From: Octopus vulgaris
Lineage: Eukaryota
NCBI GenBank assembly: GCA_951406725.2
Contig: OX597816.1
Location: 151,280,001-151,344,000, forward strand
DNA length: 64,000 nt
Direction: 5' to 3'
Shown: piece by piece, positions 11,852 to 48,067 of the stretch
Layout of the letters: each line of letters opens with the position of its first letter
Position numbering within the stretch: the stretch's first letter is position 1
Program-made: the position numbers and the translations under genes
The notes under the pieces: generated by a model
Database searches by the model: none
The model's input: the letters and a program-made list of their open reading frames with translations, nothing else
What the model was told of the DNA's origin: nothing

Positions 11852-12071
11852 ATGGTTAACTTTTGTGCTGTTAACGGCTGTTCAAGTCGTGCAGATCGCG
11901 ATAGAGCTAACTCATTTTACCGTTTGCCAGCCATTATCACTAACCAAGGAGAAGAAACTAGAGAAAGATCGCGAAAACGTCGCGAACAATGGATAGCTAA
12001 TATTAATCGACCAGATTTAAAAGAGACCAGTTATGCATATGTCCGGGTGTGCTCAGATCATTTCATATCCG
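11852..12071 (+). CDS. THAP zinc-finger protein, coding exon 1
   Basis: MVNFCAVNGC...FYRLP...RREQWIANINR...RVCSDHFIS carries the C2CH THAP signature. Ends at donor G|GTAAGA (intron starts 12072, phase 1). Confidence 0.9.
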
Positions 12072-13369
12072 GTAAGATGGAATCATAATTATGCAATACT
12101 CAATACTCTGTTGTTGTTATTGTTTCAATCGTTATCTTCCAAAACGAATTCTTTGTTTTTATCAGTAGTCGTGGAGGGAGAAATCAACGAGAGTCAGACA
12201 TGTTGGATTCCCATATTATTGTGGTAGTTTTGTATAAATTCTAGCTTGAAACAGTTTATATCCACTGTGACGTTCTGCTTGGAATAAGGATTATAATTGT
12301 TTATAAAATTCGGTTCTAAATGATTAGTAAAGAAAAGTTGTCAACTCACGAAAAGAACCGGCTCTTTCAGTTATGCCTCCATTCCTCCACCGTATACTAT
12401 TAGCTCTGACAGTGCCTCGCTGACAACATCGTAAGCATGTGTATGTCGACCTATTTCATGGAATGTATTAACCTCATAACAGAATTTGTTCGATGCTGCC
12501 TCAGAATATTTATTTTATCGAGTTGGTAGTAACAACAACTGTTATTATAGCTGTTATATCAAAATACATAGAACTGAACAAATATTAACTATTCAATGAA
12601 CATGTTTTAACTAGCAGAGCTATAAAAATTGCGATTCCATTGATAAAATATTGTTGTTATGAACATGCTTGTTACCTTAGTAATTAATTCGGTGTGAATT
12701 GTGTATATTTTCGTTAAATATTCAGTATGATCATTATCTTTTCCTTGATTAGATTTAAATAATTCCACGACTTAGGTAAATGTCAGTTCTTAACTCAGAA
12801 TATGTTAACATTAGCACGTTGTTTATATATTATATAATAGTCTTTTATTTCTTCGATTGTTCTTCTAGCTCTGATAATTGATGTAAATATTCTGTAGAAC
12901 CAACTGAGTGCCAAGGTAATCAGAAATGGTCGGTCACTTCACGTATTCCATTGTTTGCCTCTCTGAGATACAATGGTAAACATAGTGGGAGCAGCAGAAC
13001 ACGCTGCCACTTGTCTCGATATTCTTGTCATGCGATATCATGTAATTCGTTTGAAGTTAGTTGGTGTTGTATATAATATAAAGATTATATATATATTTGT
13101 GTGTGTGTGTGTGTATGTATATAAAACAAGAAGATAAAGAGAAAGATAAAGAATTTTTTTATAACAGATAGCACTACACAGAAAGTTTTTAAAATATACA
13201 CAAAAAACAGGTCGTGATTAATTCATAAAATATAAACACAGAAGTCAACGTACGGGAATAAATAACAACACTAGCTTTGTTGTATAATGCGATAAGCATT
13301 TATTTGTTTACAAACAAACATTCATGATTCTTTAAGATCTATACTTGTTTAATCTTATGTCAGCACTGA

Positions 13370-14050
13370 TTACACAGACCTCAGATCAAAGTATTCCATC
13401 CATGGCTATTCTGTCTTTTTAGAGGTGTGTGTTATAAATGACTACATTGTCGAAAGTATCCAAATATCCTTGTTTTAAGACAGTGATGTATTATTTGAGG
13501 AGATTTGCTATTTCTAGCAGGGTAAGCAACCATATAGATACTTCCTCGACGGTCCGATATATAGGAGTTGTCGTTTAGCCACTGGATGGCCCTTATCAAA
13601 CAATCCTGTGATTAAAGACATTCCAGTCGTGACTATCCCACCTTTTCCCTATATACGGGGAACCTAAGACCATATCCAAAGTGTCATTTTGTAAGACAAT
13701 AGTGTATGATTTGAGGGGAGTTTGGCTACTATTTCCACCGCTTTGAACGATCGCTTAGAGGCTCCTTCGTTGACTCGACTCGATTTACAGTTATTGTTGT
13801 CGGTATCTTTGATGAACAGGGGGACAAAAAGACACACCTTTTTGTTGCACCTATACTTTTTTTTTATAGTTTTTCATACTGTAGTAGTTCTTTATTAACC
13901 ATGATCGAACAGACCCATTACCAGAAGGATTTCATCCATAATTACCCCGACTTTATTGGGGTACTTGAGACTACGTTAGGACTGTAAGGTGTGATTTTGT
14001 TTCTATTTCTAGCAGATCAAAGTCAAAGGACCACCCAGGCATCTATGTTG
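13370..14050 (+). repeat. Three degenerate tandem copies of a ~200 bp dispersed repeat
   Basis: Recurring ..attccagccatgact..gtgtgatttgagggagatttggct(g)ctatttctagcagg motif. A related reversed copy occurs near 54020-54070. Confidence 0.5.
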
Positions 14051-16239
14051 AATGTTGGATTAAATACGTAACTCCATTATTTCAGACCACCTTCATTCTT
14101 CAAGTGTTTTATGTTAATTTATTTGTCAACTGCTCTGACTTGTAAAAAGAAGTGACACGGTGGATAGGTAGACTCGTTAGAGCTTGGGACACAATAATAC
14201 CGTATTTGGTTACAGCCTTTTACATTTCAAGTTCAAATCCTTTAAGAAGTTTGATTATCTTAAAAGTTCCTTACAGTTAAAGTAACAACTACAAGTATTT
14301 ACTTGCAGATCCAAACTGAAATTTAGCTTCAACTAGGATGGAAAGATTTTTCCTTTTCTTGTAGTGTCACTACATCTGTTTTAGTGTCAGAGCTTTTATC
14401 ATCAATTTGCTGAATATATTCCATACTTTCCTTTTTAACACTCCAAAACTTTGAGAGTAGTTTTTTTTTGTTGTTGTTGCACAATTTATCTATCTTCCCG
14501 AATGCAGGATTTTTCTCTTTATTTTTTTAGCATGTTGATAACCATAAAATTTGTATTGAGAAAACTTTTTTCATTTTGCTCAAGTGATAATCATTGGAAA
14601 CTCTATCTCTACTTTATGATAAATATTAATTCTTAGAATGCAATATCAATTCCTGTAAAGTGAATTTCATGTGTCAAGGACATATTTCCCAAATGCAGTT
14701 ATTTCAACATTCTCGATCTTTGAGATATATGATACAGGTAGGCTCTCAATAAGTCTCATTTGTATTAAATCATCTTCAGTTCCTTAATCAATTCGACCAG
14801 GTTTATCAATATCAAAGCCTGTTGCAAAGTTAATGCCACAATCTTATAATGAATTTAAAAGGATTTTTGACAGAGATATAAACCTAGTGTCAGTGATAAA
14901 CTTCTATTTTGGATTCACACTATGCACTATCATTTCCTCTATTCACTGAAACTCATCCATCAGCTACTTCAGATGAACCATTAGTAACATTAGCCTACCT
15001 ACTGATCATTAATAATTATCTCCTTGATACCGCCACACTCCTTACTATCATTTGATTTCTTTGCTTTCAAGGTTACTGTAATGCATCTTAACCATGTTTC
15101 AACAAGTTCAAGATCAGTCAGTACCAATGCAGAGCTTGCCAATGACACCATTGTTATGATGTAAGATATAACAATAAATAGTCTGATAAAGAACATATTT
15201 ATTTAACAGGTAACATACAATATGTAAATAAAGGTTCAAAGTGGCATGTACAAATTTGTCACAGTAACTGCAATAGGAATCAAGCTATAATCCATCTAGT
15301 CTTCTCACTTGTATAGCATTGACTGTTTCATTAAAATATCTTGCTATTATATCAGAAGAGGAGCTTATTCACCATTATCATTTTATGTCCTCTTTCCATT
15401 CTGGCATGGGTTGACTAGGTGGTCTTCATTGTTTGAATCATTTCTTATGAGAGCTACTACTACTAAAGACTTGTGCATGTATGTGTCATTTGGTTTGGTT
15501 TCTGTCACCAGCTACTTTGCAGAGTGTATTGGATGCATTTTCTTGTAGCACCTACACTAGAGTACTCAGTAACCTAATTTGTGTAGACTGAAGAAGGAGA
15601 TAGGAAAGGGTGCAATGACAGCAGAAAGGTCAGAAATGGGTGATTGAGAGGAGGTTATAGGACTGTAAGTGTAGAGAATATCTAATAGCCCAGGATGTGT
15701 CCATTTGCTCAAGTGGTCTAAGAAGAACATAGGAGAGAGAGGAGAAGCAAGACATCAAAATGGTTGGAGTGGATGTAAGAATGGAAGAGTCAAGAGTATA
15801 CTGGGAAAGACAAAGAGATGTTAGAGGGTAGAGTCAACAAAGCAGTATTATTGGCAATAGTTGGGATGAACAAAGGTAAGTGTAGATGGTGAGATAAAGG
15901 CAAGAATTGGGGTTAAGTGACAATAGAGGTAACCCAGAGGAGTGAGTGCTGTGGGCTGTATTGCAGCAAGGTGAAGCTAGAGTGTATAGGGTAGATAGTC
16001 TCTTACTTTTCAATGCAGTCTCTTATATCTTGGCCTAGAGAAGAATAGGGGTGTCAGAATGAAGTAAAGTGGCTGATGCAGTCTGTACAGATTGTGGTAA
16101 GATGAAAGATAGAGAGCTAGGAATGATGAATAAATGGAAGTCACGAAGTGGGGGAGTGAGTAATAGATACATGAAGTTCAACATGAGGATATAAAGTGAG
16201 AAGGCAGTTTTGTCATGGGTGAATGGTTCTTTTGTAGCC

Positions 16240-17140
16240 TAGCATAGTCCTTTGTTATCTCCCCAATATACATTACATGCCTGTACCTGTGCACCCTCCT
16301 CTCTTGCACACAACACTCAATCTTATACCCAGCTTTTCATGTAGCTTATTTGTACTCTAGTGTTTATACACACTAACATTCACATCCATCAAAACATACT
16401 GGTTTCATTTCTTTGTAGTCTTTACAAGTCTTCTGCATTCTAAGCCTATATTTTGCTACCATGTAACATTGCTGTTCTAACATAGGTGTCACACATTCTA
16501 AGGCTTTTGTTTCCAGCAGTGGTAATAAGTCCTTGAACTTTATCCAAACCCTTTTTACCGTGGCTACAATACATATTTTCTGTACAACTACTTTCCCTGC
16601 TAATTATGTCTCCTAGATAGCAGGCGTTATGAACCACTTCTAATGAGACAACCTGGCATATAAGCAAATCTATTTTCTGTGTGCTTCTAATATGTATTGC
16701 TCCAGTGCATCTGCCATGTACAAAGCTTACTTTCTTTACTGGCCTGCCTGTGATTCCACTACGTTTTTTGTGTGTCCATAATTTACATTGTGTTCAGTAT
16801 ATAGAATTTATACCTACTCTTTTTCTGTATATGAAACAAAGCCATTTCCCTGCAAATACCAAGGTCTTATCTTCTTTCTTACATACTAATATCTCTAACA
16901 CCTTGAGGACACTTGATTCTAAATTTCACTATAGATTCAGTTTTGAGAACTAGATCATCAGCACATAGGAGTTCCCATGGCAGCCAATGTTAAACCCCTT
17001 TCTGATAAACAGTAGGACTATGAGGAGAAGACTGAGGACTAAGCCTCGATGGACTCCTGTTATTATGCTAAATTTGTCACTAAACACAATGTTGACTCTC
17101 GCTTTACCTATTTTGTACATAGTTTATACAACTCACAAAG
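16240..17140 (-). mobile_element. Highly degenerate RTE-clade LINE RT fragment
   Basis: Minus-strand remnants GCPWELLCADDL, YLGDIIS and YVRTAMLHGS; homologous to 30646-31885. Confidence 0.8.
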
Positions 17141-17147
17141 TTTACAC

Positions 17148-17422
17148 CAGGCCTAGCCAACTCGAATTACATTGTGGGCCACTTTAATCACAGAAAGATT
17201 TTTAGGGCTGCGTGTATACTTTATGCTATTATTACAATGACAAATAAATGATTGTTGATTCAACATGAAATATCGTTGCAAAAACAGTAGTATCTTTCTT
17301 CAATTTTTGATAAAATTTTAAAAATGTTTAAATAAACCTATTTCAAGAAAGTATCAAGTGGGCTGCAAAATAAAAATCTGCGGGTCGCATGTGGCCCACA
17401 GGCCTCAGGTTGGCCAACTCTG
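17148..17422. mobile_element. hAT-type MITE
   Basis: CAGGCCTAGCCAAC...GTTGGCCAACTCTG termini, subterminal GTGGCCC motifs, 8-bp TSD gtttacac/gtctacac. Confidence 0.75.
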
Positions 17423-18454
17423 GTCTACACCTAGTTCTCTTAACGAGTCATTTGTCTACACTTAATTTCTTTAGTAAATTAGTTTCATTAGTGAAATGTA
17501 ATGTGAAACTAATAGTTTTGTATTTTATATTCCATACTGAGAATTTCATATTTCTCTATAACTCTAGTTTCTGTCTAACCAGTACAGGTACTAGAATCAA
17601 TAATGTTGACTATAATCATCTGTCTCCTTCTTAACTTTCCCTTTAAACTTGCACTAAGAGAGAGAGAAAAAGGATAAGGCAAAGAGTGAGACAGAAGAAA
17701 AGAGAGAAGCATCCATGAGGTGAGGTAGGGGGAATGTAATGATTTTAGCAGAGAGAGAGGGGTGAGGAGGGAGAGACAGAGAGATATGAGGAGGAAGAGA
17801 GAGAGAGAGAGAAATGTGAGTAGGGAGAGAGAGAGATGTTGTGGTGGAGATGGAGTTGGAAGTGGTGGTGGTGATTAGATAGTGAAAAGGGTATTTTGTA
17901 AAAATTGAATTATGTTTTTTATATCAACTATCACTTAATGCATGCACATATGTGCAATTCTGTGAAATATTCATGCTTATTTGTGTGGCAGATATATGCA
18001 ATCTAACTAAAGGTTGTATCATATGTATGGGATTTCTTTTTTGCTTTTGGGAAAAATGGAAAAATAAGAGTGAATATTTATTGTATGAGTGCTGTATATT
18101 AAGTCTACAAAACTAGGCATAATGTATATAAAGTGCATTAAGTAATCATTGTATTCCAATTTCTTTCACTTTCCAATGAGTAACAGATGAGCGACTATCT
18201 TTCCATACAGACACAACACAGGCTATGCTTTCAGGTTTTTTTGGATAAAGTTTTCAGAAATAACCCAATGATTTTACCATTAATTCCATGAAATATTCAT
18301 GGGTCCCGCTAGATATAAGTAATTATCAATGATTTTAGCTTACTACATTAGTGTCTTGTTAAGAAATAAAACAGTGGAATATCTGACACACCATACTAAA
18401 GAAAATATTTTACAATTCTCACATATGACAAAATTTTGTTTCTGTGCTTCCTTT

Positions 18455-18822
18455 AGCTAGCTTTGCAACCATGTGACCTTGTGTTCAGCCCCACTGCACT
18501 GCACCTTGTGCGACTGTCTTCTACTATAGCCCTAGGCCAAGCAAAGTCTTATGAATAGATTTGGTAGATGGAAACTGAAAGAAGACTGTGGTCTGTATAA
18601 ATGTATATATATGTGTGTTTGTCTCTCCAGCAGCACTTGACAGCCAATGATGGTTTGTTTACATCTCTGTAACTTAGCAGGTCAGCAAAAGAAACTGATA
18701 GAATAAGTACCAGGCTTTAAAAAAAAAATAAACACTGGGGTCAATTTGTTTGACTAAATCCATCAAGGTAGTACTCCAGCATGGCCACAGTTTGGTGACT
18801 GAAACAATTAGAAGATAAAAAA
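18455..18822 (+). mobile_element. tRNA-derived SINE with internal (TA)n/(TG)n
   Basis: Head ..gttcagccccactgc..tgtcttctactatagc..ggtagatggaaactgaaagaag and tail ..gaataagtaccagg..ctccagcatggccacagt. The family recurs at 21170, 25080 (-), 30470 and 48370. Confidence 0.7.
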
Positions 18823-19673
18823 AAAGGTGTATATACATAACACACTTCTGCACAGTTTCTGTCTACCAAATTCTGTTCAGAAGTTTAGCTCAAGGTACTG
18901 TGCAATGGGATCAAATCTAGACTCCTAGTTTAAAGTTTCTTAAAACCACACAGCTATTTTGTCTTTTGTCAAAAAGTTCCTTATACCATCATCATTGCTC
19001 ATACTCCTTGAAATTGATGTCTTTATTCATAGTACACATGAACTTTGACCTTTAGTTTTAATGTCCCTTGCAAGCTTTACCTGTCATATGATGTTTTGTG
19101 GTGCCTAGCAACCAATTTATTATATATTTATCAGTTGTTCAAACATGTCTAAATCTAGCTATCATTCTATCTGTGTCGCTTCTACTTAAATTCTATTCTT
19201 TGATTTCTCTCTATTGACTGTCTCAACCACTGTTGCTGTTTCTACCTTTTTTTCTTAACTCTCATATTTCTTCTTTCTAGTTCAGCCTCCTTTTTCTTTC
19301 CACTCTGGGAATTCTATATTTTGGTTGAACTGGTTGGACTACTGCTCAGCTCTGTCTCTTAACAGCTGAGGTTTTACTTATCGGCTGTAGAGATTACTTT
19401 AAATTTCTTTGGTGAATGCTTTTTGTAAAATCAAAGACCTTAACTGCTGGGAATAAGTTACATGTTTACTCTTTGAAACTGGAATAATGTAGTATGATAG
19501 ATATGGGGAATATATACAAAACTCTTGTTTCAACCTTTGGCATAAAAGAGAAAAATACAAAAGGAATGGGAGGTACTTTCAAATCCAAACACTTCTATTG
19601 CATCAGAAACATATACAGCAACAGTGTGGCATTTAAAGACCAGCAAGTGTACAATTGCCTTACAAATGGTTTA

Positions 19674-20890
19674 TACAAGGGGTTACCTAAAAGTAACTGG
19701 AAACGTTCTCTGTGGGACAAGCCCATTGTAGTTCATGCTTCCACCACTAGAAGACACTTGATGGAACCCTCAGGTATCAGTCTGCTGACCAGCAGCAGCA
19801 TGTTGAGTCATATTGCCATGCGGTATGTCTTTGTTTTGCAGTGCTTCTCCCCTGTTCATCGATTTTTGCAATAGCTGAAATGAAGGGACAACGTGCTTCT
19901 ATGAAATTTGTTTTCTGCCAGGGAAAATGGCAGCTGAAACAGTTGTCATGCTTCAAACAGCTTACAAAGATACTGCCATGAGCAAAACACAAATTTACAA
20001 GTGGTTTTCACACTTTAGGAATGGTCATTTGTTGCTTGAAGACCAACCTCATTCAGGGCGACTATTGACCTCTCAAACAATTGATGAACTTGTTGATATG
20101 ACAGGTATGTCCTGGAGCACCTGCCAATGAATTTTGAGTGAAGAATTGTGAATGAAAAGAGTTGAAGCAAAATTTATGCATCACTTGCTCATGGAAGATC
20201 AAAAGCAGTCATGACTGAATGCATGTCATGAACTGAAAGAACAGTTGGAAGTTGATCTGGACCTTTTTATGAAGATCATCACTGGTGACAAAAGCTGGTG
20301 CTATGGCTACAACCCAGAAACGAAGCAGCAATCCAGTCAATGAAAGCATCAAGTGAAGTCCAGTGTCAAAACAATGCTGATTTGTTTCATCGACGTGAAA
20401 GGACTTGTCCACACAGAATTTGTTCCGCCAGGTCAAACTGTAACCAGACATTTTACTTAGCAATTCTGAAGCATTTTCAAAACATGGGGAGATGAAAATG
20501 CCCTGACCTGTGACAAAGTGGATAGTGGTGGTTTCATCATGATAATGCACCTGTGCACACCATCTTGAGTGTGAGACAGTTTTTAATAAAAAATGGCATG
20601 ACCCACTTACCCATCCTCCCTATTCACCCAATCTTGCTTCCTGTGTCTTTATATTTGTTCCTCCAAATGAAAAAAATCCTTAAAGGAAAACGTTTTGTAG
20701 ACGTGGAAGAGGTGAAGAAAAAACCTCAAAGGTGTTAAAAGGCATTACTTCACAAGAGTTCCAGGACTACTTACAACTATGGAAAATGTGTCTGGACTGA
20801 TGCATTGATTCAAATGGAGAACACTTTGAAGGCGGTAAAAGTATAAACATGTGAAACTAGGTGAATAAAATAATATTGCAAAATTCCCTT
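19674..20890 (+). mobile_element. Degenerate mariner (DD34D) transposon
   Basis: Broken frames AAETVVMLQTAYKD..YKWFSHF, IITGDKSW, WFHHDNAPVH, YSPNL-like and LFLQMKKILKGKRF. Left TIR begins TACAAGGGGTTACCTAAAAGTAACTGGAA; the right TIR is decayed. Confidence 0.9.
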
Positions 20891-22923: not shown

Positions 22924-22956
<33 letters not shown>

Positions 22957-26867: not shown

Positions 26868-28123
26868 TGAGGTCATCCCATAAGTTCTGTCCGATTTTAC
26901 CTTTTTTAAAACTGAATGAAATTTAATAGTATTTTAGAATGTCTAATGGAATTAAAAAGTATTTTTATGCATTTGTGTACATTTAAACTAATTAAATATT
27001 ATTTTACAGAATAATAGAATTAAAATTTCTTTGATTAAAATCCTTTCTAACATGGAAGTATCCGAAGGCACATAATGCTTTATGAGTACAAAAAAGGAAA
27101 CTCTGCAGCTGAAGTGAGACAGAACATACACTCAGTTTATGGGAAAGAATGCTTGAATGAAAGAACTTGCAGAAGATGGTTTGCAAAATTCAGAAGTGGA
27201 GATTTCAGCCTTGAAGATGAAGATTGAACAGGACATCCAGTTGAGTTTGATGATAACTCCTTGAGGCATTACTTGAAGAAAATCCTACATTATCAGTCGA
27301 AGAATTGGCAATAAAGCTTAGTTCAAACCATACAACTGTTCATCGTCATCTTCAACAACTTGGAAAATGGGTGCCTCATGAATTGTCTGAAAGCAACCGC
27401 AAATCCCAAGTTGACATCTGCTCTTCTCTCCATTCTCGCGAATTCATTTCACCCTTTTTAGATAGACTTTTGACTGGTAACAAAAAATGGATCTTCTATT
27501 GAAATGTTAAACATAAACAGTGGCTTGGTAAAAGGGAAAAAGCTCAACCACAACCGAGAAGGGGACTTCATGGAAAAAAGGTTCTTCTCTCTGTCTGGTG
27601 GTATTGCAAAGGAGTAATTCACTTTGAATTGTTACCACCTAATGCAACAATCAATGCTCAAATCTACTGTCAACAATTAGAATGTTTGAACCAAGCTTTG
27701 AAGAAAAAAAAACCCCGCTTTAGTGAATCGAAAAGGAGTGATGTTTCATCAGGACAATGCGCGATCCCACACTGCAAAGATCACATCACAGAAGATCAAA
27801 GAGCTTGGTTAGGAAAAAATTCCTTATCTACCTTATTCTCCTGACCTTGCTCCTTCAGACTACCATTTGTTTTGTAGTTTACAGAATCATTTGGGGGACA
27901 TAACTTTCACATGCTAGGAGGAGGTCAAAACTGACATTTCAGAGTTCTTCACTTTAAAACCAAAAGAGTTTTACATTGATGGGATTAAAAAGCTTGTTAA
28001 TAGATGGAAGGAACTCATAAATAATCAGGGAAAGTACATTGATGATTAAATTTCAATTAGATATAACATTTGATCACTTGTTTTCTTATTCAAAATTCGG
28101 ACAGAACTTATAGGATGACCTGA
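26868..28123 (+). mobile_element. Full-length but inactivated mariner (Mos1/Hsmar-like) transposon
   Basis: About 30-bp TIRs (GAGGTCATCCCATAAGTTCTGTCCGATTTT / AAAATTCGGACAGAACTTATAGGATGACCTG), TA flanks, motifs WVPHEL, TGNKKWIFY, HQDNAR and YSPDLAPSDYHLF with stops and frameshifts. Confidence 0.95.
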
Positions 28124-30469: not shown

Positions 30470-30645
30470 GTGGCTGTGTAGTAAGTAGCTTGCTTACGAA
30501 CCACATAGTTCCGGGTTCAGTCCCACTGCATGGCACCTTGGGCAAGTGTCTTCTACTAGGGCCGACCAAAGCCTTTTGAGTAGATTTGGTAGACGGAAAC
30601 TGAAAGAAGCCCATCGTATATATGTGTGTGTATATATATATATAT
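30470..30645 (+). mobile_element. 5' half of a SINE; the 3' half is at 33290-33498
   Basis: tRNA-like head with B-box GGTTCAGTCCC, ending in (TA)n where the RTE begins. Confidence 0.75.
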
Positions 30646-32817
30646 ATACCTGGCTTTTGTTGATATGGAGAAAGCCTTCGACAGGGTCCCCCGATCCCTC
30701 ATCTGGTGGTCAATGAGGAAACTAGGGATAGATGAATGGTTAGTGAAAGCTGTACAAGCCATGTACAGAGACGCTGCTAGTAAGGTGAGGGTTGGCACCG
30801 AGTACAGTGAAGAATTCAGGGTAGAGGTTGGGGTCCACCAAGGCTCAGTCCTCAGTCCCCTCCTATTTATCATAGTCCTCCAGGCAATAACGGAGGAATT
30901 CAAGACAGGATGCCCCTGGGAGCTCCTCTATGCTGATGACCTTGCTCTAATTGCTGAGTCTCTATCAGAACTAGAGGAGAAGTTTCAGGTATGGAAACAA
31001 GGTTTAGAATCGAAGGGCCTTAGAATCAACCTAGCCAAAACCAAAGTCCTAATAAGTAGGAAGGTAGACCAATCACAAACGCCTTCAGGTAGATGGCCCT
31101 GCTCGATCTGTAGAAAAGGTGTAGGTAGAAACTCTATAAGATGCACCAAGTGTAAGCTATGGACACATAAGAGGTGCAGCAATGTCAAAGGAAGGCTAAC
31201 TAGGAAGATGGTTTTTGTATGTGGCAGATGCTCAGGAACAATTAACACTGAAGATGCTCTGAGACCAACTTCCGTCACTTTCCAGGGAGAAAAGCTAGAA
31301 GTAGTTGATAGTTTCCGTTACCTAGGTGACCAAGTCAGTAGCGGGGGCGGGTGCGCTGAGAGTATAACTGCTAGAGTAAGAATAGCCTGGGCAAAGTTTA
31401 GAGAGCTCTTACCTCTGCTGGTGACAAAAGGCCTCTCGCTCAAAGTAAAAGGCAGACTGTATGATGCATGTGTACGTACAGCCATGCTACATGGTAGTGA
31501 AACTTGGGCTGTGACTGCTGAGGATTTGCGTAAGCTCGCAAGAAATGAAGCTAGTATGCTCCGATGGATGTGTAACGTCAGTGTTCATAATCGACAGAGT
31601 GTAAGTACCTTGAGAGAAAAGTTGAACCTAAGAAGTATCAGTTGTTGTGTGCAAGAGAGACGTATGCGCTAGTATGGTCATGTGATGAGAATGGCTGAAG
31701 ATAGTTGTGTGCGAAAGTGCCACACCCTGGCAGTTGAGGGGACCTGTGGAAGAGGTAGACCCAGGAAAACCTGGGTCGAGGCGGTGAAGCACGACCTTCG
31801 AACTTTAGGTCTCACCAAGGAAATGACCAGTGACCGAGACCTTTGGAGGTATGCTGTGCGTGAGAAAACCCGGCAAGACCAGTGAGAACAGTCAAAATCA
31901 AGATCAAACCAAATTGAGGTCGATCAACATCAGGGCCCCCGTGCAGGCGACACGTAAAAGTACCATCCGTTCGTAGCCGTTCGCCAGCCCTGTCTGGCCC
32001 CCGTGTAGGTGGCACGTAAAAGCACCATCCGTTCGTGTTCGTTGCCAGCCTGGCCTGGCCCCCGTGCCGGTGACACGTAAAAGTACCATCCGTTTGTGGC
32101 CGTTTGCCAGCTCTGTCTGGCCCCCGTGCCGGTGGCACGTAAAAGCACCATCCGTTCGTGGCCGTTTGCCAGCTCTGTCTGGCCCCCGTGCCGGTGGCAC
32201 GTAAAAGCACCATCCGTTCGTGGCCGTTTGCCAGCCCTGTCTGGCCCCCATGTCGGTGACATGTAAAAGCACCATCCGTTCGTGTCCGTTGCCAGCCTCG
32301 CCTGGCCCCCGTGCCGGTGACACGTAAAAGCACCATCCGTTCGTGGCCGTTTGCCAGCCCTGTCTGGCCCCCATGTTGGTGGCATGTAAAAGCACCATCC
32401 GTTCATGCCCGTTGCCAGCCTCGCCTGGCCCCCGTGCCGGTGACACGTAAAAGCACCATCCATTTCGTGGCCGTTTGCCAGCTCTGTCTGGCCCTGTGTT
32501 GGTGGCACGTAAAAGCACCATCCGTTCGTGTCCGTTGCCAGCCTCGCCTGGCCCCGTGCCGGTGACACGTAAAAGCACCATCCGTTCGTGGCCATTTGCC
32601 AGCTCTGTCTGGCACCTGTGCAGGTGGCAGGTAAAAAGCACCCACTACACTCACGGAGTAGTTGGCGTTAGGAAGGGCATCCAGCCGTAGAAACACTGCC
32701 AGATCTGACTGGGCCTGATGAAGCCTTCCAGCTTCACAGACCCCAGTTGAACCGTCCAACCCATGCTAGCATGGAGAACGGACGCTAAATGATGATGATG
32801 ATGATGATGATGATGAT
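30646..32817 (+). mobile_element. 5'-truncated, young RTE-clade LINE (RT with PHD-like finger), 3'UTR tandem array and (GAT)n tail
   Basis: AFVDMEKAFDRV, GVHQGSVLSPLLF, LLYADDL, FRYLG, R*YGHV (a single TAG at 31670 where TGG is expected) and GRGRPRKTW. Stop at 31885; (GAT)n ends at 32817. Confidence 0.95.
31930..32645 (+). repeat. GC-rich minisatellite of about 12 x 60-62 bp within the RTE 3'UTR
   Basis: Unit ..GTGCCGGTG(G/A)CACGTAAAAGCACCATCCGTTCGTG(G/T)CCGTT(T)GCCAGC..TGGCCCCC. Confidence 0.93.
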
Positions 32818-35093: not shown

Positions 35094-35836
35094 GAAAATC
35101 TGCTACTCTATATGAAACGGCAAACCCCGATTGGGCTCCAACTCTTCGACTTGGTCGTGATCGTGCAAAGGATTTCCAAGCTGGTTCAGTCCGAGGTAAG
35201 ACAAAACGCAAAAGAAAATTGGATTCCAGCTCTGATGATACACTGTTTGCTCTGTCTGTTTGCAATTCTGAATTGCAACAAAGATGTCAATCCCTCACAA
35301 ATGTTGGATCTGAATCTTACCGAAAAGCAGTTCACAAATTTCTTGAAACAAAAGAAGTTATGGATTTATTAATGCTACCAGATGAAGTTTTTTCAAGTCA
35401 ACCTCCTTGTGAGCCAATTCGGGGAGAAATTTACCTCATGAAAATAGATCCTTCACAGGAATCCAGTGACTGGACTAAAGATGGCTACTCTTGGTTAAGT
35501 TTAGGATCGAATGATTTAATCTTGAATCAGAGCCCTGCTCTGCGTCAAAGTACTTTTCGAATGTTAGTTAATGAGATTGAAACTTGTCTGCTAAAACATG
35601 TTTATCGTTCTTTTAATAATAACCAAAAAGTTGTCATTCATTATGTTACTGATGAAAGACTTAGTAACAGTAAGTCTTATCCACATTCTATGGACATCAC
35701 TGGAACTTCATCAGTACCACAAACCCATTTAGGAATTACTCAGTATTACCACCAGCTAGTGGAAGATTGTAATGTTGACAGTCAGAAATCATCTGAGGCT
35801 CTCTGGGAGATGGCCCCCACCAACAAGGAGAAATCT
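35094..35836 (+). CDS. THAP gene exon 2: end of THAP domain, basic NLS-like patch, CG-1-like domain
   Basis: Acceptor ttctattttacag|GA is phase 1 and gives ...[25 protein letters not shown] (AVPTIF-box equivalent). The frame continues into the 35219 ORF: KTKRKRK, PPCEPIRGEIYL, DWTKDGYSW, KHVY...VVIHYVTDE. Donor TCT|GTAAGT at 35837 is phase 0; unspliced read-through stops at 35845. Confidence 0.82.
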
Positions 35837-40597: not shown

Positions 40598-41751
40598 GCC
40601 ATATTATGTTGGCAAACAATCTTTACTACAAAGTACTGTTGCTGAATATCTCATGTTGTGAGATTTAAAAATAGTAATTTTCTAATCCAGCTAACTGTTT
40701 ACATTTAGCTTGTTTAAACTTTTCATATTTATGAAAAATAAAATGCAAACATTTCATTTTTCATCTCTTTCTGCATAAAGAACTGCTAGCTAAGTGTGCT
40801 AAATATATTTAAAACAAATGATTGACAGTGTATAAAAACACAGATAGGTTGACTAAGCATTATTAAAGCCATATGGAAAATTATATTTGAATGTAGTATT
40901 TTAATTTAAATTGTTAGTAGTCATCATCATTTTACATCAGCTTTCCATGCTGAATTGAATTGGATGGTCCAATACAATCCAACAAGTTAATAGATTGAGT
41001 TGTGCTCCAGGCAATGATGTAGCTTATAGGGAAACAACCCTCCCAGCACAGTTTTCAAAATTGATGACTTTTTTATGTGCCCACTCTCACTAACATTAGG
41101 ACCTGGCTATGCCCTTTGCTCCAGTGTCTCAATTTTGGCACAGTTTCTACTGCTGGATGCCCTACCTAACACCAACCAATTTAAATAGTGTACTAAGTAA
41201 TTTTTTCATAGTACCACCACTAGCGAGATTTGCAATGTGCCAGTGTAAAGAGACCCCATGAGTAAAAGGGGAATAGGAAAAAGAGATTGATTTTTAAGTA
41301 AGGTGATGAGAGTAAAGCAGAATAGGAGGAATAGACTTATTGTTGTGAGAGGGTGTTATCGGCACTAGTAACTTGTAAGACAAAAAAGAAAAAGGAAAAG
41401 GAGTGTACTTGAGAGAGAGAGGGAGATGGCTACAGGTCACTCTTAGTCTTACAAGCTGGGTAGATATGCTTTGTTGTGGAGATCTAATATGGCTACAACA
41501 TGTCCCTTGCTTTTCATCAGTTTGCTTCAAGACCAATTCTGCTCCCCCACTGCATTTCTACATTTTCCAAACACTTCAATTGATTTTATTAAAGTTTTAT
41601 CAAAGCTTATGGTTTTTAAGCTTTTACAAGAGAACTTTGCAATTGTAACAGAAAATGTGGTGCATCAAACAATATAAGTGAGACAGAGTAGAGTTGAAAT
41701 TTCCAAGCTATAAGGAACTATTGTAGTTATAGTTATAAAAAATGGAGAGTA

Positions 41752-42585
41752 TGAGGTGCATTCAAAAAGTATCTGACTTCATTTTTTCCCACTGAAAATA
41801 ATGCAGTGTGGGCAAAATCCTTTGTGTGAGAGGTGATGTCACTCTTTCAGCACATGTTTTCATACTGGTAGGCCATGTTAGTTCCCGGCTGTTACACCTA
41901 GAATACAGATGTGTAGTGGGCACTCGGTGGATTTTCGTTATTGCATCAAGTTTTGGCAAAAGCTTAATGATACTCAAGTTCAACCCATTCAGAAAATTCA
42001 GCAGGCCTTTGCCAATGATGCTATGGGCAAAACTCAGATCAAGGAGTGGTAATGCATGCTTCAAACATGGCCACACATCAATGGAGAGCAAGGCATGCTC
42101 AGGCAGGCCATTCACAAGCTGAAACAAGGAGCTGATTGAGAAGATTTGGTGAATAGTCATGGAAGACTGTCATGTAACAATCCAGGAAATTGTTCATGAA
42201 GTGGGAACAAGCACGAGATCAATGCATTTCATTTTAATGAAAGATTTGTGCATATGGAGAGTGTCTGCACAGTTTATCCCCAAGGTGCTGGCAGAGCAGC
42301 AGAGTTGCCTCTGCATGGAAATCACATAGAACATGCTGGACTGTGCAAACCATGACCCAGACTTCATGAAGACCATTATCACTGGCGATGAGACATAGGT
42401 TTATGGTTTCTGCTCAATGCATTCGGTCATCTTGCATGAAAATGAAAATCTGACAAGTGCATGCTACACGTCTCTACTCTCAGAATATGCTTGAAGAGTG
42501 ATGTCACCTCCCACCCAAATGATTCTCCCCATGTGACATTAGTTTTGGCAGAAAAAATAGTTGGATACATTTTGAATGCACCTCG
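41752..42585 (+). mobile_element. Internally deleted mariner derivative with extended inverted ends
   Basis: TIRs GAGGTGCATTCAAAAAGTATCTGACT / AGTTGGATACATTTTGAATGCACCTC; transposase N-terminus CIKFWQKL..MGKTQIKEW..SGRP through IITGDET only. Confidence 0.88.
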
Positions 42586-43699
42586 GATGCTTGGAGGTCA
42601 GTTATTGAAGGGTTGGTGAAAGCTTCTCTACTTGTTGGATGTTTTTTTGTGAATACTCCATTTTCTACTTATGAGAACAGTAACTCATTGATGCACACGA
42701 GGCAGTGAATAAGCAAAATCATTACAGCATCAGACAAAAGGAGTGGTGGCACTTGTTCTGGTTCATTGCATTCTGAGTTCAAAGCAGTGGATTAATAGAA
42801 TTGTTAGATTTTAGGATAAAATGTTTTACAGTATTTGTTCTAGTTCTTTACGTTCTGAGTGCCTAGGAAGGTGTGGCAGTTTGTATCTAGCCAACAAGAG
42901 GTACCATGTAAAAAAATTTTTTTTTTAATCCAAAAGAAGGTAACAAGAAAACACCTCTATAATCCCACAAAATTTCCATAAGCATATAACGCAAGTCAAA
43001 GAAGCCATTATTTGTTTACCGACCTCATCACGTAAGGAAGAAACTTATCTTTTAGGGAGTTACTAAGCGTTCATGCCTGCAGTATCTTGATACTGGTGCA
43101 AGAGAGAAAACAGGGCGGAGGTAAAGCATACATACACAACCCGTTTTCGGCGTAACAAAAACCCTAACCCTAAACACCGGTGTACATATTCCTTACTTTA
43201 GCCGAAAACAGCTTTTGTAATCAAAACTGGGCGGCTTCCTTAAAAAGTTACGTTATGAAGATTGTCAGACTTGGTATATAAAGGTTTTAGATGTCTATAT
43301 ACTAGTTAAAAGCGACCTGGGTGTGCTGCACTTTTCAACTATATATATATGTAGCCAGCATATGTTACATGCTGGCTACTTGAAATCTTATATAGTTTTT
43401 ATCCTTGATTTTATATATATATAGTGATCATGTTCTCGTGTTTTGATGCTGTTAAGCAGAGCTAAGTTATCACATACAGACTGCTGAATGAATATGCAAG
43501 TATGCATGTTTGAGATTGATGTGAAGAAAAATCAAGTTTGCCGAGAGAGGTGTGCGATGAAGCAGAGTGACCATGTCAAAGATGTACAATTCAATAAGAA
43601 ACATGCATAAAAATGGTTTTCTCTGAACTTTCAAATCAAAATTATATTTCTGTATGCTAAGTAAATTTAAATTTTAAGCGTTTTTGCAATAACTATCAC

Positions 43700-44344
43700 T
43701 ACATCATGCGGAAGGAAAAGAGCGAGAAATTGGTGTTTTCTTCCTTTTAAAAATTGCTTTTAGTATTTTCGTGTTTCACACAACGGAAGTACAATTCTGA
43801 AAGCAATATTATCGGAAATTCCGTGCCTTTTTCTTTGTCATGAAGTTAGTGAAAGCTATTCCCAAGCGCCGTCCAGTTTTTATACAAAAGGATGACATAA
43901 TCAGATCCATTTGCAAATCAAATTTCCGAATTTATTTTTAAAACTTACGGCGATACGCCAAACTTACTGTTGTGGCAAAGAATTTACTCTGAAGAGACCC
44001 AGGTAACTTTTCAATTTAGGGAGAAAATATTTCACCAAAACAAATACAACAAAACTTCTGCAAGTTGTTATTAACGACAACTGTTAGAAGAGTTCTAAAC
44101 ACAAATTATTCCGGAACACAGCAACCGGATGTCTAACAGAATAATAAAGACTAATAAACCTGACACACCATCAGTTGATTCACATGCGGATGAATACAAT
44201 GTTTACGCCAAATGAGTTTCCGTGTGTATTTCACATGTACTGTTAACAGACATGTCTTGTTGTGATACCCTCTTCCTGAGAGGTACTCCATAAATTCTCA
44301 GTCCTTTCTTTCCTTTTTTTTTTTTTACTTTGCTACCCATAAAT
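43700..44344 (+). promoter_or_regulatory. Putative internal promoter/5'UTR upstream of the HTH exon
   Basis: CpG-retaining, TE-free stretch with several CGGAA ETS-like cores (e.g. ACGGAAGT near 43783) and a possible donor CAG|GTAACT at 44003. Confidence 0.4.
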
Positions 44345-44890
44345 ATGCAAAGACTAAATAACACGACTGCATATAAAACGTCTTCTGGTAATAAAGTTGC
44401 GGGAGGTGAATGTAAAAGAAAAGCTATAACGCTTGAAGAGAAGCTAGATGTAATACAGCGTTTTGAACGTAATGAAAGAACATGTGATATTGTTCGTGCA
44501 ACGGGAATAAAAGAGTCTACTCTACGCACCATTAGAGACAATGCCGAAAAAATTAAAGCTAGCTATATTGCTGGAACAAGCCTCAGTGCTTGCAAATCTG
44601 TAAGATCGCGACCAAGGGAACTTGAGGAGATGGAGCGGCTTTTATGTTTGTGGTTAGAAGATCAATCAGAAAAACTATCTGGAACAAGCTTTCTCACTAT
44701 AAAAGAAAAAGCTTTATCAATTTATGAAGACCTGAAGAAGAAAGCCGAAAACCCGGCAATCGTGCCTGCTTTTAGTGCTAGTAGTGGCTGGTTTGTTGGT
44801 TTTAAGAATCGTTATACTTTTTATAATGTGAGGTGTGGTGGTGAAGTTCTTAATACACACGAGGAACGTGCTATGACATTTCGTCCTAAG
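44345..44890 (+). CDS. CENP-B/Tigger(pogo)-type DNA-binding exon (HTH_psq-like plus CENP-B HTH), no DDE domain
   Basis: KRKAITLEEKLDVI...IKESTLRTI...EEMERLLCLWLEDQ...IKEKALSIYEDL...FSASSGWFVGFKNRY is typical of Tigger transposase N-termini. Intact ORF ending at donor AAG|GTACTG (phase 0). Confidence 0.85.
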
Positions 44891-45422
44891 GTACTGTAAC
44901 ACGTATTTCATTAAGACATGTAAATTAAACATTCGTTCACAAATCACTTTTTCCAATACATAATTTTTCTTTTTTTATTCTTGCACAAAATCGAGACTAT
45001 TGCTTTATCTCTGTCCCAAAACCGATAAATATATAATCCTTTGTTTGTTCTTTTTATAGAAGCCAAATTTGATCGTTATAAAAGTGTATTGCATTAATAA
45101 TAATATATAATGCAGTAAGGATTTGTTACTACTGACATTATATTTTAAACCTATTTATGGTAAATATTACCTTCTAATATCCCATAGTATTTTGACAAGT
45201 TTTCCAAAGTGGTTTATCTCTCTCTCTGTCTCTCTATTTCACCATTTCATGCATCATGCAAACAATACTTTTGTGTTCGCGATACACAACACTCGCAGAG
45301 TTGATGTTAGAAAATAAAGAGAAATAACTCATCCTGGAAAAGTTGGCAATATAAAGGGATGTCTAAAAGTAACAATTTCATAGATTAATATCAAAAGTGA
45401 TAAAGACAATTTTTCTTTTCAG

Positions 45423-45862
45423 CCTCTAGCACACCAACAGCGTTCACCTTTGGCTATTTCTGATTTGAATCAACCGGTGGAATTCAGTTCATCTGACCAG
45501 TTAAAAGTCAATTCTAACAACGATATACAAAAGGCTATTCAACCTTTCAACATGAATGATGTGCATCTTTCTAGTCGATCTATCATTGATATTGAACAAA
45601 CTGGGAGATCTTTCGGAGTAAAACCTCGCATGAAACGGCTTCCTAAATTGAAACGCCAATTTGGATCCGGAGCTAAAGATTTATCAGTGAACAGATCTCA
45701 TTTATCTCAGAGGCCATCCAACCAAATTAGATCTCATCAGCGATGGATAAAAGAATCTACTGGTAATTCTTCTGTTGGAGAGCAGCATTTTGACGTAGTT
45801 TTAAATAAAAATTCTGTAGAATACAATTCAAAAGTACCAAAAATTAACAGCAATTCAATAGC
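45423..45862 (+). CDS. Linker exon of the BTB gene (polar/basic, probably disordered)
   Basis: Acceptor ttttcttttcag|CCT (phase 0), open frame PLAHQQRSPLAISD...NSNSI, donor GC|GTAAGT (phase 2). Confidence 0.78.
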
Positions 45863-46108
45863 GTAAGTGTCTTAAAAACATTTTTTTTCTTTCAAAGAGA
45901 AATCTACTTTTCGTTTTGTGTGTATAAAATGACAAATTGTTTTATCTTAATGTGTAACATTTCACTTTTATATAATACAGATGATATTTTCTGTTAGATA
46001 TATAAACTATCAAATATTTTATTATATAATGTATCAATATTCAGTTTTGATGCATTTTATATTCGAAAACATTTCGATTTCATTGATAACAATTTATTTT
46101 ATTTAAAG

Positions 46109-46289
46109 TCATTCCCTGTCTGATGAAGTCGTAGTTCTTCCACAATCAACTATACCAGCTGTTCAGAAAGAGAAACGTACTTTAGTTGTACCAAATCACC
46201 AAGTAGCAGTAATGTCCAATCTATTCTCTATGTGGAAAGTTGGGCGTTTGTGTGACTCGTATATTAGTAATGGTACCACAAATGTAATG
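46109..46289 (+). CDS. BTB/POZ domain, N-terminal exon (not in the supplied ORF track)
   Basis: Acceptor ttttatttaaag|T (phase 2). Reads HSLSDEVVVLP...PNHQVAVMSNLFSMWKVGRLCDSYISNGTTNVM, i.e. BTB helix 1 and the LCD motif. Donor ATG|GTATGT (phase 0). Confidence 0.85.
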
Positions 46290-46832
46290 GTATGTATGTT
46301 ATAATTGTTTATCCCTTTTACTCAGTATAAAATTTACATTTTACAATACTAATGAATCATTAAAGATATATTTATAATATTGGTACAGTAAAATAAGCTG
46401 GTATAATTTAATATGTCAGAATTCTGATCTAGTTCAAAAAAGAAAGTTATGGATGTCTATGTCATTGAAATAACATGTTGACGGAAAGATCAGTAGTTCA
46501 AAATACTATCTAGTGTCTCTTAAGTCTCAATGACAATTTTCAGTTAGATGTCATTAGAAGATGCAAGTGCCACAAGTAGTAAGTATACTGTGTAATAAAT
46601 AACTTGTTGTTCTGAGTCTAAATCTTCTTATTGGTAAAACATGCAAAAGAATAACATTCCTATCCAATACTGGAAAATATCTGTGATTTCAAATCTGAGT
46701 AAAATTGCTGCATACTTTACCTACTACTTGGGATGTTTCTCAGCCAGACAATATACACAAGTATTTATGCGGTAGGATCTAACTGAAATTAAATTTAAGT
46801 TCCATTTCTTAAATGCTCTTCTCTCGGTTTTG

Positions 46833-46940
46833 TCAATATCAATGATGGATCAACTAGAAAGATGCACATCATTCATGTTGAAAGGTTGAATAGCCTTTTG
46901 TATATTGTTGTTGACTTTTAACTGGTCAGATGAACTGAAT
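46833..46940 (-). repeat. Intronic inverted copy of exon sequence 45482-45595
   Basis: Reverse complement aligns by eye with 3 substitutions and one 6-nt gap. Confidence 0.93.
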
Positions 46941-47029
46941 CTTTAAAAAATGTGTGCATTGTAGAGAATTTCAAATAGCATTTAGCAATATATAAAGCAT
47001 GTTTTTACCACATTTATTTTATCTTTCAG

Positions 47030-48067
47030 GTTCATAAAATGGTTTTGGGAGCTGTGTGTCCAAAAGTATTGCCCATTCTATATAACACCTCAAGTAGTTT
47101 GTTTCCTAAAGTGACATTTCCAAGTTCAGTCAGTAAAGAAGCACTTTTAGCATTTGCAGAATACATGTACAGTGGTGTGTTAGATCTGAATGAAGATATT
47201 CTAGTGCAGCTGAAAACTATTGGTGAGAGATTAGATATGAAAGATTTTGAACAACTTTGTAGTAATGAATTGAACAAAGCTAAGACTAAAGATATTTTAT
47301 CAGCTGTGGTGGAACCTTTGTTGGCAGAACCTTGTTCTTTATCAGGATTACTCCCTTCCAGAACACATGGAGACTCTAATGAGGTTCAGAACTCTATGTT
47401 AATGAAGATACTTGGAAATATTTACAGCAATAATAGCATGCAAACTGATGTTCCTGTTACCATTGCATCAACATCTGCATCCAGTTCTTCTTCTGTTTCT
47501 GATGTAAGGTCTGCAGAAAATATGGCTACAGACCAGATTGTTGATATCAAAACTGAAGTGGAATCAGAAATAGAGCCTGCAACAAACCACAACTCTCTAC
47601 AATTAAAAATGGAACCGTGTAGTCCTGGTGAAAATCAATATAGTATTCAAGAAGAATTATTCATGGATATTAGCAACATTACTTCCAATAATAATCTTCA
47701 TCTAACACCTGGTACCAGTGCCACTTCTGGAAATATCATCAATAACCAGTATAGAAATGATCTAAATATGGATTCCAATGATATCATCAATATATCTGAT
47801 ATCCCTCAATCTGAAGAGACTTGTTTATCCCAGCATACTGAAGATTGTGATAAAGATACTGATAATCAGAAAGAACTACAGTTAATTTCAGTAACATCTG
47901 CCACAGGGAATATAAGTGAAGACAGTCTCAGTAATAATTCTGATTTGATAGAGATCTCCAGTACCATATGTACAGAACCCCCACCAACATCAAATTCTAG
48001 ACCATACCCTGTAAGTTTATTTTCTGTGAATGGCAGTAAAATTCCAACTACATTACCAGATAGCTGA
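47030..48067 (+). CDS. BTB/POZ domain remainder plus Ser/Asn/acidic low-complexity C-terminus
   Basis: Acceptor ttttatctttcag|GTT gives VHKMVLGAVCP...ALLAFAEYMYSGVLDL...GERLDMKDFEQLC. Stop at 48065-48067, or an alternative donor CCT|GTAAGT at 48011. Contains psi-K-x-E motifs IKTE and LKME. Confidence 0.88.
   Translation, partial: VHKMVLGAVCPKVLPILYNTSSSLFPKVTFPSSVSKEALLAFAEYMYSGVLDLNEDILVQLKTIGERLDMKDFEQLCSNELNKAKTKDILSAVVEPLLAEPCSLSGLLPSRTHGDSNEVQNSMLMKILGNIYSNNSMQTDVPVTIASTSASSSSSVSDVRSAENMATDQIVDIKTEVESEIEPATNHNSLQLKMEPCSPGENQYSIQEELFMDISNITSNNNLHLTPGTSATSGNIINNQYRNDLNMDSNDIINISDIPQSEETCLSQHTEDCDKDTDNQKELQLISVTSATGNISEDSLSNNSDLIEISSTICTEPPPTSNSRPYPVSLFSVNGSKIPTTLPDS

Follow-up and report, generated by a model that had tools for sequence, protein, structure and literature searches.

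The window, a stretch of 64,000 nucleotides of the Octopus vulgaris genome, probably carries, judging from its sequence and from annotated transcripts, a single gene whose coding sequence can begin in either of two alternative heads, each annotated as being joined in frame to the same three BTB-coding exons. The products would be two DNA-binding regulators built on one body predicted to dimerize, and both of the splice forms are very likely to be real.

Gene organization and putative promoters

All the exons are located on the plus strand. The long isoform starts with exon A1 (11852-12071, 220 nt), which encodes a THAP zinc finger and ends in a phase 1 donor (CCG/GTAAGA); splicing from 12071 to 35094 keeps the frame. 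Exon A2 (35094-35836) encodes the end of the THAP domain, a basic stretch, and a CG-1-like domain, and ends in a phase 0 donor (TCT/GTAAGT). The coding part of the short isoform begins with exon B (44345-44890, 182 codons, phase 0 donor AAG/GTACTG), which encodes CENP-B_N and HTH_Tnp_Tc5 domains, that is, the DNA-binding part of a pogo/Tigger-type element, and ends ahead of the catalytic domain. Exon C (45423-45862), the first shared exon, has a phase 0 acceptor and gave no match in the Pfam search; its phase 2 donor at 45862 was missing from the original prediction. Of the BTB domain, exon D (46109-46289, phase 0 donor) supplies the N-terminal strand and helix, and exon E (47030-48067) the remainder, followed by a Ser/Asn-rich tail and a C-terminal motif, according to Pfam and the NCBI models. 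When rechecked in the sequence, the exons, splice sites (all canonical), and phases that had been claimed were found to be as described.

The argument that 45423 is the next good acceptor after exon A2 proved to be weak, as 17 acceptor-like sites were identified between 35837 and 45422; the joining of the THAP part to the BTB domain is supported by annotated and assembled transcripts, and not by the proximity of this acceptor. A scan of 95 open frames of at least 62 aa on the plus strand of the window (the frame 46107-46301 being entered as 46110-46289) revealed no DNA-binding exon besides those described, only mariner and LINE remnants. The introns are full of transposon remnants, and the mariner HTH fragments located at 19879-20127 and 27257-27841 were rejected as extra heads, since they are broken and lie outside the CpG-retaining regions.

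These regions, in which the CpG observed/expected ratio is at least 0.65, are located at the distal start (10001-14250) and in the intron of the long isoform (42751-46500), and the ratio in the introns between them is mostly 0.03-0.35. The CpG retention originally noted upstream of both heads was recovered, but taken alone it is not a promoter-specific mark, since CpG richness is also seen in young repeats (31-34 kb and 56-64 kb). A GSKIP-domain gene lies head-to-head with the THAP start, its ATG (11501, minus strand) being 351 bases from the THAP ATG, and 10001-14250 is likely to be a bidirectional promoter common to both. The region at 42751-46500 is likely to be the proximal promoter, and each head is likely to be driven by its own promoter.

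Support for the isoforms and conservation

Both of the predicted isoforms were found, with exact junctions, among the NCBI models of O. sinensis (P0017 and P0001) and O. bimaculoides (P0016 and P0014). In these two Octopus species, X1 is the THAP+CG-1-like+BTB form and X2 the CENP-B-type HTH+BTB form; the models are predictions, and the two annotations are perhaps not independent. What is known about the HTH isoform comes from this annotation, and the octopus junctions are those of the models. As regards the long isoform, a cuttlefish-like Logan contig was found to encode a 901-aa THAP+CG-1-like+BTB protein (P0012), which is near-identical to a Sepia-named protein. Since the matching octopus exons span 36 kb and this contig amounts to only 3,486 bases, it corresponds to a spliced product. 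In two further cuttlefish-like Logan contigs (P0023 and P0026), the same acceptor, that of A2, is joined to a ZSWIM3_N/FAR1 head; a search for an octopus counterpart of this head upstream of A2, covering 264 kb around the window, gave no match. The HTH isoform did not occur among the decapod proteins in protein searches giving 13 and 21 matches.

In comparison with O. bimaculoides, which is a close congener, the residues identical numbered 74/74 in A1, 245/247 in A2, 179/182 in B, and 542/552 in the shared part, the heads being as conserved as the shared part at this close range. In the THAP domain, 75 of 92 residues are identical to those of P0012.

Domains and origin of the heads

A profile check on both predicted isoforms confirmed that the THAP, CENP-B_N, HTH_Tnp_Tc5, and BTB domains all score above the Pfam cut-off. 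The THAP domain (E=2e-12; PF05485, 49 bits vs a cut-off of 23.9, residues 5-91 of P0017) keeps all four C2CH zinc ligands, namely Cys5, Cys10, Cys67, and His70. In exon B, CENP-B_N (E=7e-10) and HTH_Tnp_Tc5 (E=1e-7) were identified, and the exon can be aligned with 1hlv, the structure of the DNA-binding part of CENP-B (E=9e-7). The CG-1-like domain falls below the cut-off (E=0.0013, 18.9 bits vs 23.5); over 122 aa it shares 41% identity with an exon of a paralogue that scores 33.6 bits, above the CG-1 cut-off. No solved relative of this domain was found by sequence, and a fold search with a three-sequence model (pLDDT 51) gave no match at E 0.001. The heads probably bind DNA, and the two regulators are likely to recognize different sequences.

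The heads had been described as domesticated transposase parts. This description fits the HTH head, which is of the pogo/Tigger type, and is not supported for the CG-1-like part: no link with a transposon was found for it, and its only two genomic copies both lie in BTB genes. Exon B is intact and unique, the next match among 149 pogo-like matches in the genome, many of which contain stops, being 41%. No remnant of a catalytic (DDE) domain was detected around it in 43000-46200, and the best candidate terminal inverted repeats (14-17/24) are inside the random range of 12-18. Being single copy, with no catalytic domain and no terminal repeats, exon B no longer looks like a mobile element. The grouping of 8 BTB-linked CENP-B-type heads into one clade, as against 22 unlinked copies, was rejected (p-AU 7e-5, long branches included), and it is highly probable that heads have been captured repeatedly and independently.

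The shared BTB body

The BTB domain was identified above the Pfam cut-off (E=2e-6), and the nearest solved BTB domains by sequence are those of gigaxonin (E=5e-4) and ZBTB9 (E=4e-3). The PYPVSLF-type motif at the C-terminal end of exon E was present in 17 of the 25 family proteins checked. Neither BACK nor Kelch domains were found in P0001 or P0017. The shared region lacks FxLRWN, the motif by which PMC11426971 defines the promiscuous TTK group; P0001 reads TLVVPNH there.

The predicted BTB pair scored 0.74 (pLDDT at least 85), as against 0.00 for the best of 3 controls, and the runs agreed in at least 96% of the contacts. In the model, residues 351-356 pair with residues 438-442 of the partner, a strand exchange which is a feature of ZBTB-type dimers. 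Among eukaryotic proteins, 17 of 29 homodimers of solved structure reached the mark used for this score, including 7 of 16 from animals and 1 of the 7 having no older solved relative, and none of 30 monomers did; the predicted pairing score may reflect only the likeness to solved BTB dimers. According to PMC11426971, BTB heterodimers are perhaps prevented in vivo by co-translational assembly combined with quality control. That different isoforms might pair, and that such mixed dimers might matter in cells, is possible but somewhat doubtful.

Paralogous loci

The BTB family to which this gene belongs gave 24 matches in the genome, and the named members are all coleoid. The family loci carry 1, 2, 3, and about 26-36 heads. 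The large paralogue is located on the same chromosome, 2.1 Mb away, and has 26 domain-bearing open frames on the sense strand vs 0 of 138 frames on the antisense strand. Its heads belong to the THAP, CENP-B, Brinker, Psq, FLYWCH, Crypton, and Tc1 HTH classes and are arranged in four nested tiers. The tiers connect through short linker exons, and where a THAP exon is split, its last zinc ligand comes from one of these linkers. The tier acceptors are placed at C3:149,173,585 and at linkers near 149,197,473, 149,268,119, and 149,322,250, and in 22 of 26 cases the best donor has the phase of its tier's acceptor (9.1 expected, P about 3e-7). The CpG ratio is at least 0.8 around 24 of the 26 frame starts, 36% of the 1-kb bins reaching at least 0.65, and the two low-CpG frames are internal exons of two-exon heads. 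The search for the 5' end of this paralogue, whose outermost THAP exon is that of P0083, found nothing near-identical to that exon as far as C3:149,500,000. The head junctions of the window gene (2 heads) and the 3-head paralogue were taken from the NCBI models. It is likely that a few such loci, drawing on recycled parts of transposons, give rise to dozens of transcription factors.

A second BTB cluster consists of 12 BTB genes. The automatic models fuse neighboring genes in this family (P0011 and P0030).

Proposed mechanism and alternative explanations

DNA transposons probably inserted, in sense orientation, into an intron or the upstream region of an expressed BTB gene, each bringing along a DNA-binding exon with its start codon. 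If the DNA-binding part was followed by a splice donor in the right phase, the head would have been retained and the catalytic part lost, and the same capture, repeated across the family, would have given rise to the loci with 1, 2, 3, and about 26-36 heads. The choice of promoter would then set the DNA sites to which the common BTB body and its conserved C-terminal motif are brought. In a bolder version, which we consider distinctly unlikely, coleoids would possess a transposase-capture platform in which tiered linker exons keep trapping new heads as promoter-bearing first exons, giving a protocadherin-like pairing code or a KRAB-like control of transposons. If this were true, cells would select from dozens of heads through their promoters and combine them via an identical BTB domain; some 35 heads at one locus would yield about 600 possible pairs, and the result would be a combinatorial code of transcription factors or a BTB-based counterpart of KRAB transposon control.

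It is quite conceivable, if slightly less than probable, that both isoforms are real DNA-binding regulators, each pairing only with itself, the shared BTB domain being a mere economy of gene structure. The lack of the FxLRWN of the promiscuous group speaks for this explanation, but since the BTB domain is identical in both isoforms, there is no mismatch of surfaces, and only the timing of assembly could keep them apart. The captured heads might also serve to control transposons by binding the terminal repeats of the parent element and bringing in a BTB-linked repressor, as KRAB-transposase fusions, which repress sequence-specifically, do (bioRxiv 2020.05.07.082677). This we regard as rather unlikely: the heads do come from many superfamilies and several pogo lineages, but the lack of any close genomic relative of exon B suggests that its parent element is long gone, and the THAP head is common to the cuttlefish-like protein, which fits an old host role. 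This explanation and the preferred one, namely DNA-binding regulators selected by promoter choice, are compatible.

That the heads are mainly protein-binding modules, or that the BTB domain is a cullin-3 adaptor for which they select substrates, seems improbable. Gigaxonin and ZBTB9 are the nearest solved BTB domains, the variable ends of mod(mdg4) bind proteins (PMC5666082), and an F-box family has put a captured Tc1 HTH to use at the protein level (PMC12062965), but no BACK or Kelch domain was found in any scanned family protein combining this BTB with a transposon-type head, the THAP domain retains its zinc ligands, and nearly all the heads belong to DNA-binding classes. The presence of two neighboring genes, a THAP gene ending after 35836 and an HTH-BTB gene, with a long isoform resulting from annotation or read-through artefacts, is very improbable. 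An in-frame stop does occur in the intron, 3 codons past the A2 donor, and fused models are known in this family, but the THAP-to-BTB chain lies on single short cuttlefish-like Logan contigs (P0012, P0023, and P0026) and is annotated as X1 in both Octopus species. Hardly credible at all is the neutral trapping of transposon fragments spliced as functionless noise: despite the remnants crowding the introns, the heads are open, confined to the sense strand (26 vs 0/138), matched in phase (22/26), and conserved like the shared part.

Comparison with known systems

The lola and broad genes have a common N-terminal BTB domain with alternative C-terminal DNA-binding domains. The original prediction saw in the octopus locus the mirror image of this type of gene, to which mod(mdg4) also belongs; the paralogues with 3 and about 26-36 alternative heads bear this out far more strongly than the window gene. 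As in mod(mdg4), one BTB-containing common region is combined with many alternative domains (PMC5666082). The mod(mdg4) gene has more than 30 isoforms, most of which carry FLYWCH variants, and its variable ends act at least partly via protein contacts; its BTB domain is N-terminal and of the TTK type, and its variable part is C-terminal and mainly trans-spliced (PMC5666082), whereas that of the octopus gene is N-terminal, on one strand, likely to be chosen by promoter, and drawn from many transposon superfamilies. Lacking FxLRWN, the octopus BTB follows a similar logic to that of the TTK group (mod(mdg4), lola, and broad) but is not a member of it.

As in the clustered protocadherins, UGT1, and chelicerate sDscam, tandem first exons on the same strand, which are likely to have their own promoters, are in frame with constant exons (the junctions being those of the NCBI models). 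The variable exons in those genes are described as duplicates of one domain type, whereas the octopus heads are unrelated domains captured separately and form four nested tiers in the large paralogue. In KRABINER and SETMAR, transposase DNA-binding domains have likewise been captured by splicing to a host regulatory domain, but in the worked examples of these vertebrate fusions the transposase lies downstream of host exons, with one capture per gene (bioRxiv 2020.05.07.082677), whereas in octopus it is the first exon that was captured, and many captures occur in one gene. BTB is not mentioned in the available text of that preprint. The closest direct precedent is provided by KCTD1 isoform b, in which the insertion of a Crypton-derived DUF3504 exon ahead of a BTB gene has produced a longer isoform, and KIAA1958, which has two alternative DUF3504 exons (PMC3212892); they differ in having one added head, a different BTB class, and no array. 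The oyster BTB clusters (PMC12111275) were rejected as a case of the same phenomenon, since they are described as plain gene duplications.

No description of this head-swapping architecture was found in the literature, and the available text of PMC12988792 and PMC7811963 contains nothing on these BTB loci. The present loci would constitute an invertebrate case in which single loci have captured transposases many times over; their layout is that of a protocadherin cluster, but the variable part consists of DNA-binding domains unrelated to one another. With heads of different origin on one constant body, the origin of transcription factors from transposons becomes directly testable, as does the possibility that cell types in cephalopods differ in the promoters which they use at these loci. 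The same octopus THAP-BTB and CENPB-BTB proteins were reported by Mukherjee and Moroz (2023; PMC10027918) as separately named transposon-derived factors, the BTB domain being treated as a transposon part; the words "isoform" and "alternative" are absent from the main text of that paper. In its supplement, the O. bimaculoides orthologue of the window THAP isoform occurs once and the locus id of the large paralogue in 11 rows. Since these 11 rows share one locus id, part of the published octopus THAP/Psq/CENP-B "expansion" consists of isoforms of one gene.

Organization of the window gene

The gene in the window is a real feature, a two-head member of a family in which alternative N-terminal DNA-binding-type parts ("heads") are joined to a single BTB body. 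All the splice sites and phases named in the original prediction were recovered when the sequence was checked. On the plus strand, exon A1 (11852–12071) joins in frame to exon A2, which starts at 35094 and ends at 35836 with a phase-0 donor; these two exons form the THAP/CG-1-like head. Exon B (44345–44890), the CENP-B-type HTH head, also ends with a phase-0 donor. The shared exons are C (45423–45862), with its phase-0 acceptor at 45423, D (46109–46289), and E (47030–48067), and the BTB domain is interrupted by the last intron. Pfam searches placed THAP, CENP-B_N, HTH_Tnp_Tc5, and BTB over the cut-off and CG-1 under it. The argument that 45423 is the next good acceptor proved to be weak, since 17 acceptor-like sites intervene, but the conclusion still stands because of other evidence.

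Each of the two starts lies in a CpG-retaining stretch of an otherwise CpG-depleted region. The distal one is common to the THAP exon and a GSKIP-domain gene, a single-exon open frame (11109–11501, minus strand) arranged head-to-head at a distance of 351 bases from the THAP start. An inverted copy of part of exon C (45482–45608) is present in the D–E intron (46820–46940; 93 nt at 92% and 30 nt at 100%) and might form a duplex with it in the unspliced transcript that could influence splicing or RNA editing. The window also contains a GC-rich tandem array (31934–32642; 62-nt unit, 11.5 copies) directly after a LINE reverse-transcriptase remnant (30593–31672), and a CpG-retaining stretch (57430–59339) with 148–157 nt tandem repeats in opposite orientations (57616–57887 and 58922–59339).

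Support for the isoforms

The search with the last exon of the gene returned 13 proteins. Both predicted isoforms correspond to models of O. sinensis LOC115209549, isoform X1 (P0017, 873 aa) and isoform X2 (P0001, 734 aa), which align to the window in every block and at the predicted junctions; identical junctions occur in the O. bimaculoides pair (P0016 and P0014). The models from both species are automatic, and RNA-seq data usually lie behind such models. Independently of any annotation, one 3,486-base Logan contig encodes a protein of 901 aa with THAP, CG-1-like, and BTB parts (P0012) that is near-identical to one named as Sepia, and a ZSWIM3_N/FAR1 head is attached at the same A2 acceptor on two contigs (P0023 and P0026). 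In another decapod-like pair, one BTB body is shared between a form with a THAP head (P0116, P0251) and a form whose head was assigned by eye as FLYWCH-like (P0258). The HTH isoform of the window gene was seen in Octopus models only.

The tiered head array of the large paralogue

The strongest example of the multi-head architecture is the array of the large paralogue, located 2.1 Mb away on the same chromosome (C3:149,173,585–149,360,000, minus strand, segments L043–L061), where about 26 transposon-type first exons precede one BTB body (BTB exon at C3:149,172,600). The O. bimaculoides annotation of this gene has isoform numbers up to X36, the N-termini differ in 24 of the 25 isoforms examined, and an Argonauta model also exists. 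Within L043–L063 (210 kb), the sense strand has 26 open frames with matches to DNA-binding domains of transposon type or to Crypton-derived ones (THAP, CENP-B_N/Tc5, BrkDBD, HTH_psq, FLYWCH, Tc1-type HTHs, DUF3504, and, weakly, a zinc finger); of 147 frames that passed the filter, the scan covered 145, the other two being BTB exons. On the opposite strand, none of the 138 frames passing the same filter carries such a domain, the matches there being to helicase and reverse transcriptase, together with a single DDE remnant and a single chance match. The 5' end of the gene was sought and not found.

The models show four tiers of heads: the innermost heads reach the constant acceptor directly (phase 0), and the outer ones pass through a series of one to three short linker exons (phases 0, 1, and 0). 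The first linker opens with the histidine completing the THAP exons that end in Cys-Ser-Lys. The top-scoring donor after the domain is in the phase of the tier in 22 of 26 frames, against 9.1 expected from the control-strand frames (P about 3e-7; tier phases taken from the models, general donor weights); these frames include 25 with Pfam matches and one head known from a model alone, one frame cut by a locus edge being excluded. In one of the four misses, a phase-0 donor is used in a published model.

Origin of the heads

The heads of the window gene look domesticated. Residues identical to those of O. bimaculoides amount to 74/74 in A1, 245/247 in A2, 179/182 in B, and 542/552 in the shared part, and the THAP domain is identical to that of P0012 at 75 of 92 positions. 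For exon B, 150 of 655 candidates in the genome were scored; these gave 148 further matches, the best of them at 41% and many carrying stops. The exon aligns with the N-terminal portion of complete pogo-like frames, ending ahead of their catalytic region; no catalytic remnant was found in 43000–46200, and no terminal repeats around the exon. A transposon origin of the CG-1-like domain is not established, because its only two copies both lie within BTB genes of the window's cluster.

The heads might have arisen by duplication of one exon or by repeated capture. When eight BTB-linked CENP-B-type heads were compared with 22 unlinked genomic copies, a single clade was rejected (p-AU 7e-5, in a tree with several long branches). 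Since the heads do not form one clade, the sequences point to repeated capture rather than duplication.

Possible mode of action and relation to known systems

Exon anatomy, strand and phase bias, and conservation are seen directly in the sequences. In the mechanism we propose, each head would have its own promoter and bind DNA sequence-specifically, while the BTB domain and the C-terminal motif (PYPVSLF-type in 17 of the 25 family proteins checked) would recruit one common partner. A strand-exchanged BTB homodimer was predicted with a score of 0.74 (best control 0.00), a result which may be explained by likeness to solved BTB dimers. Mixed dimers are conceivable because the BTB domain is identical in both isoforms, but we consider them somewhat doubtful, since co-translational assembly, according to PMC11426971, may block them.

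Among known systems, mod(mdg4) has the opposite domain order and joins its parts by trans-splicing, KCTD1b is a precedent with one head, vertebrate transposase capture is known for KRAB and other domains, and the protocadherin, UGT1, and sDscam clusters supply the gene layout. Octopus THAP and CENP-B proteins with BTB were noted by Mukherjee and Moroz (2023; PMC10027918), and their supplement gives separate names to an orthologue of the window's THAP isoform and to 11 rows from the large paralogue. The architecture is already implicit in automatic annotation and apparently undescribed as such: no description was found in the literature searched, six locus ids included, where subscription papers are thinly covered. 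The significance of the finding rests mostly on the family and the large paralogue, and less on the window's own locus.

The BTB family and its clusters

Matches to the BTB exon number 24 in the genome: five in the window's plus-strand cluster, 12 in a minus-strand cluster (C3:148.96–149.17 Mb), of which the large paralogue is the first gene, and seven elsewhere. The BTB domain is split at the identical place in all 17 genes of the two clusters. Among 1.84 billion representatives, a profile search gave 47 matches at E 1e-10 or better; eight of the 10 looked up belong to Octopus-, Argonauta-, or Sepia-named clusters and the other two are vertebrate proteins of different types with several BTB domains, so that the family, with names known for 10 of the 47, is likely confined to coleoids.

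Multiple heads recur in the family. In the window's cluster, exons for CG-1, THAP, and a Tc1-like transposase appear in the models of the upstream paralogue. The third gene downstream of that paralogue can start, in both Octopus species, with any of three first exons (CENP-B-type, STPR, CENP-B-type), all of which have phase-1 donors and lead to one acceptor. At the unlinked locus LOC115220336, a FLYWCH head and a DUF3504 head share a single body. Two genes of the window's cluster have a single STPR head.

Within the upstream paralogue, a BrkDBD+HTH_Tnp_Tc5 frame (segment L011:5219–5764, plus strand), absent from the models examined, is a candidate further head. Two near-identical THAP first exons (96% protein identity), 1.1 kb apart, lie ahead of this gene (L010, C3:151,253,200–151,254,600), and one cassette in its models is an intact Tc1/IS630-like transposase exon with a DDE_3 domain. 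An apparently uncaptured pogo-like fragment occurs in antisense (minus strand) in an intron of the cluster's last paralogue (L016, window-relative 98825–99460). In the 12-gene cluster (L024–L038, minus strand), most genes start with Arg/Glu-rich STPR-like heads, and Helitron fragments are present in two of the intervals; a Helitron origin of the STPR heads is conceivable. Models P0011, P0089–P0091, and P0049 combine heads or BTB halves of neighbouring paralogues, and may reflect annotation errors or genuine splicing across genes.
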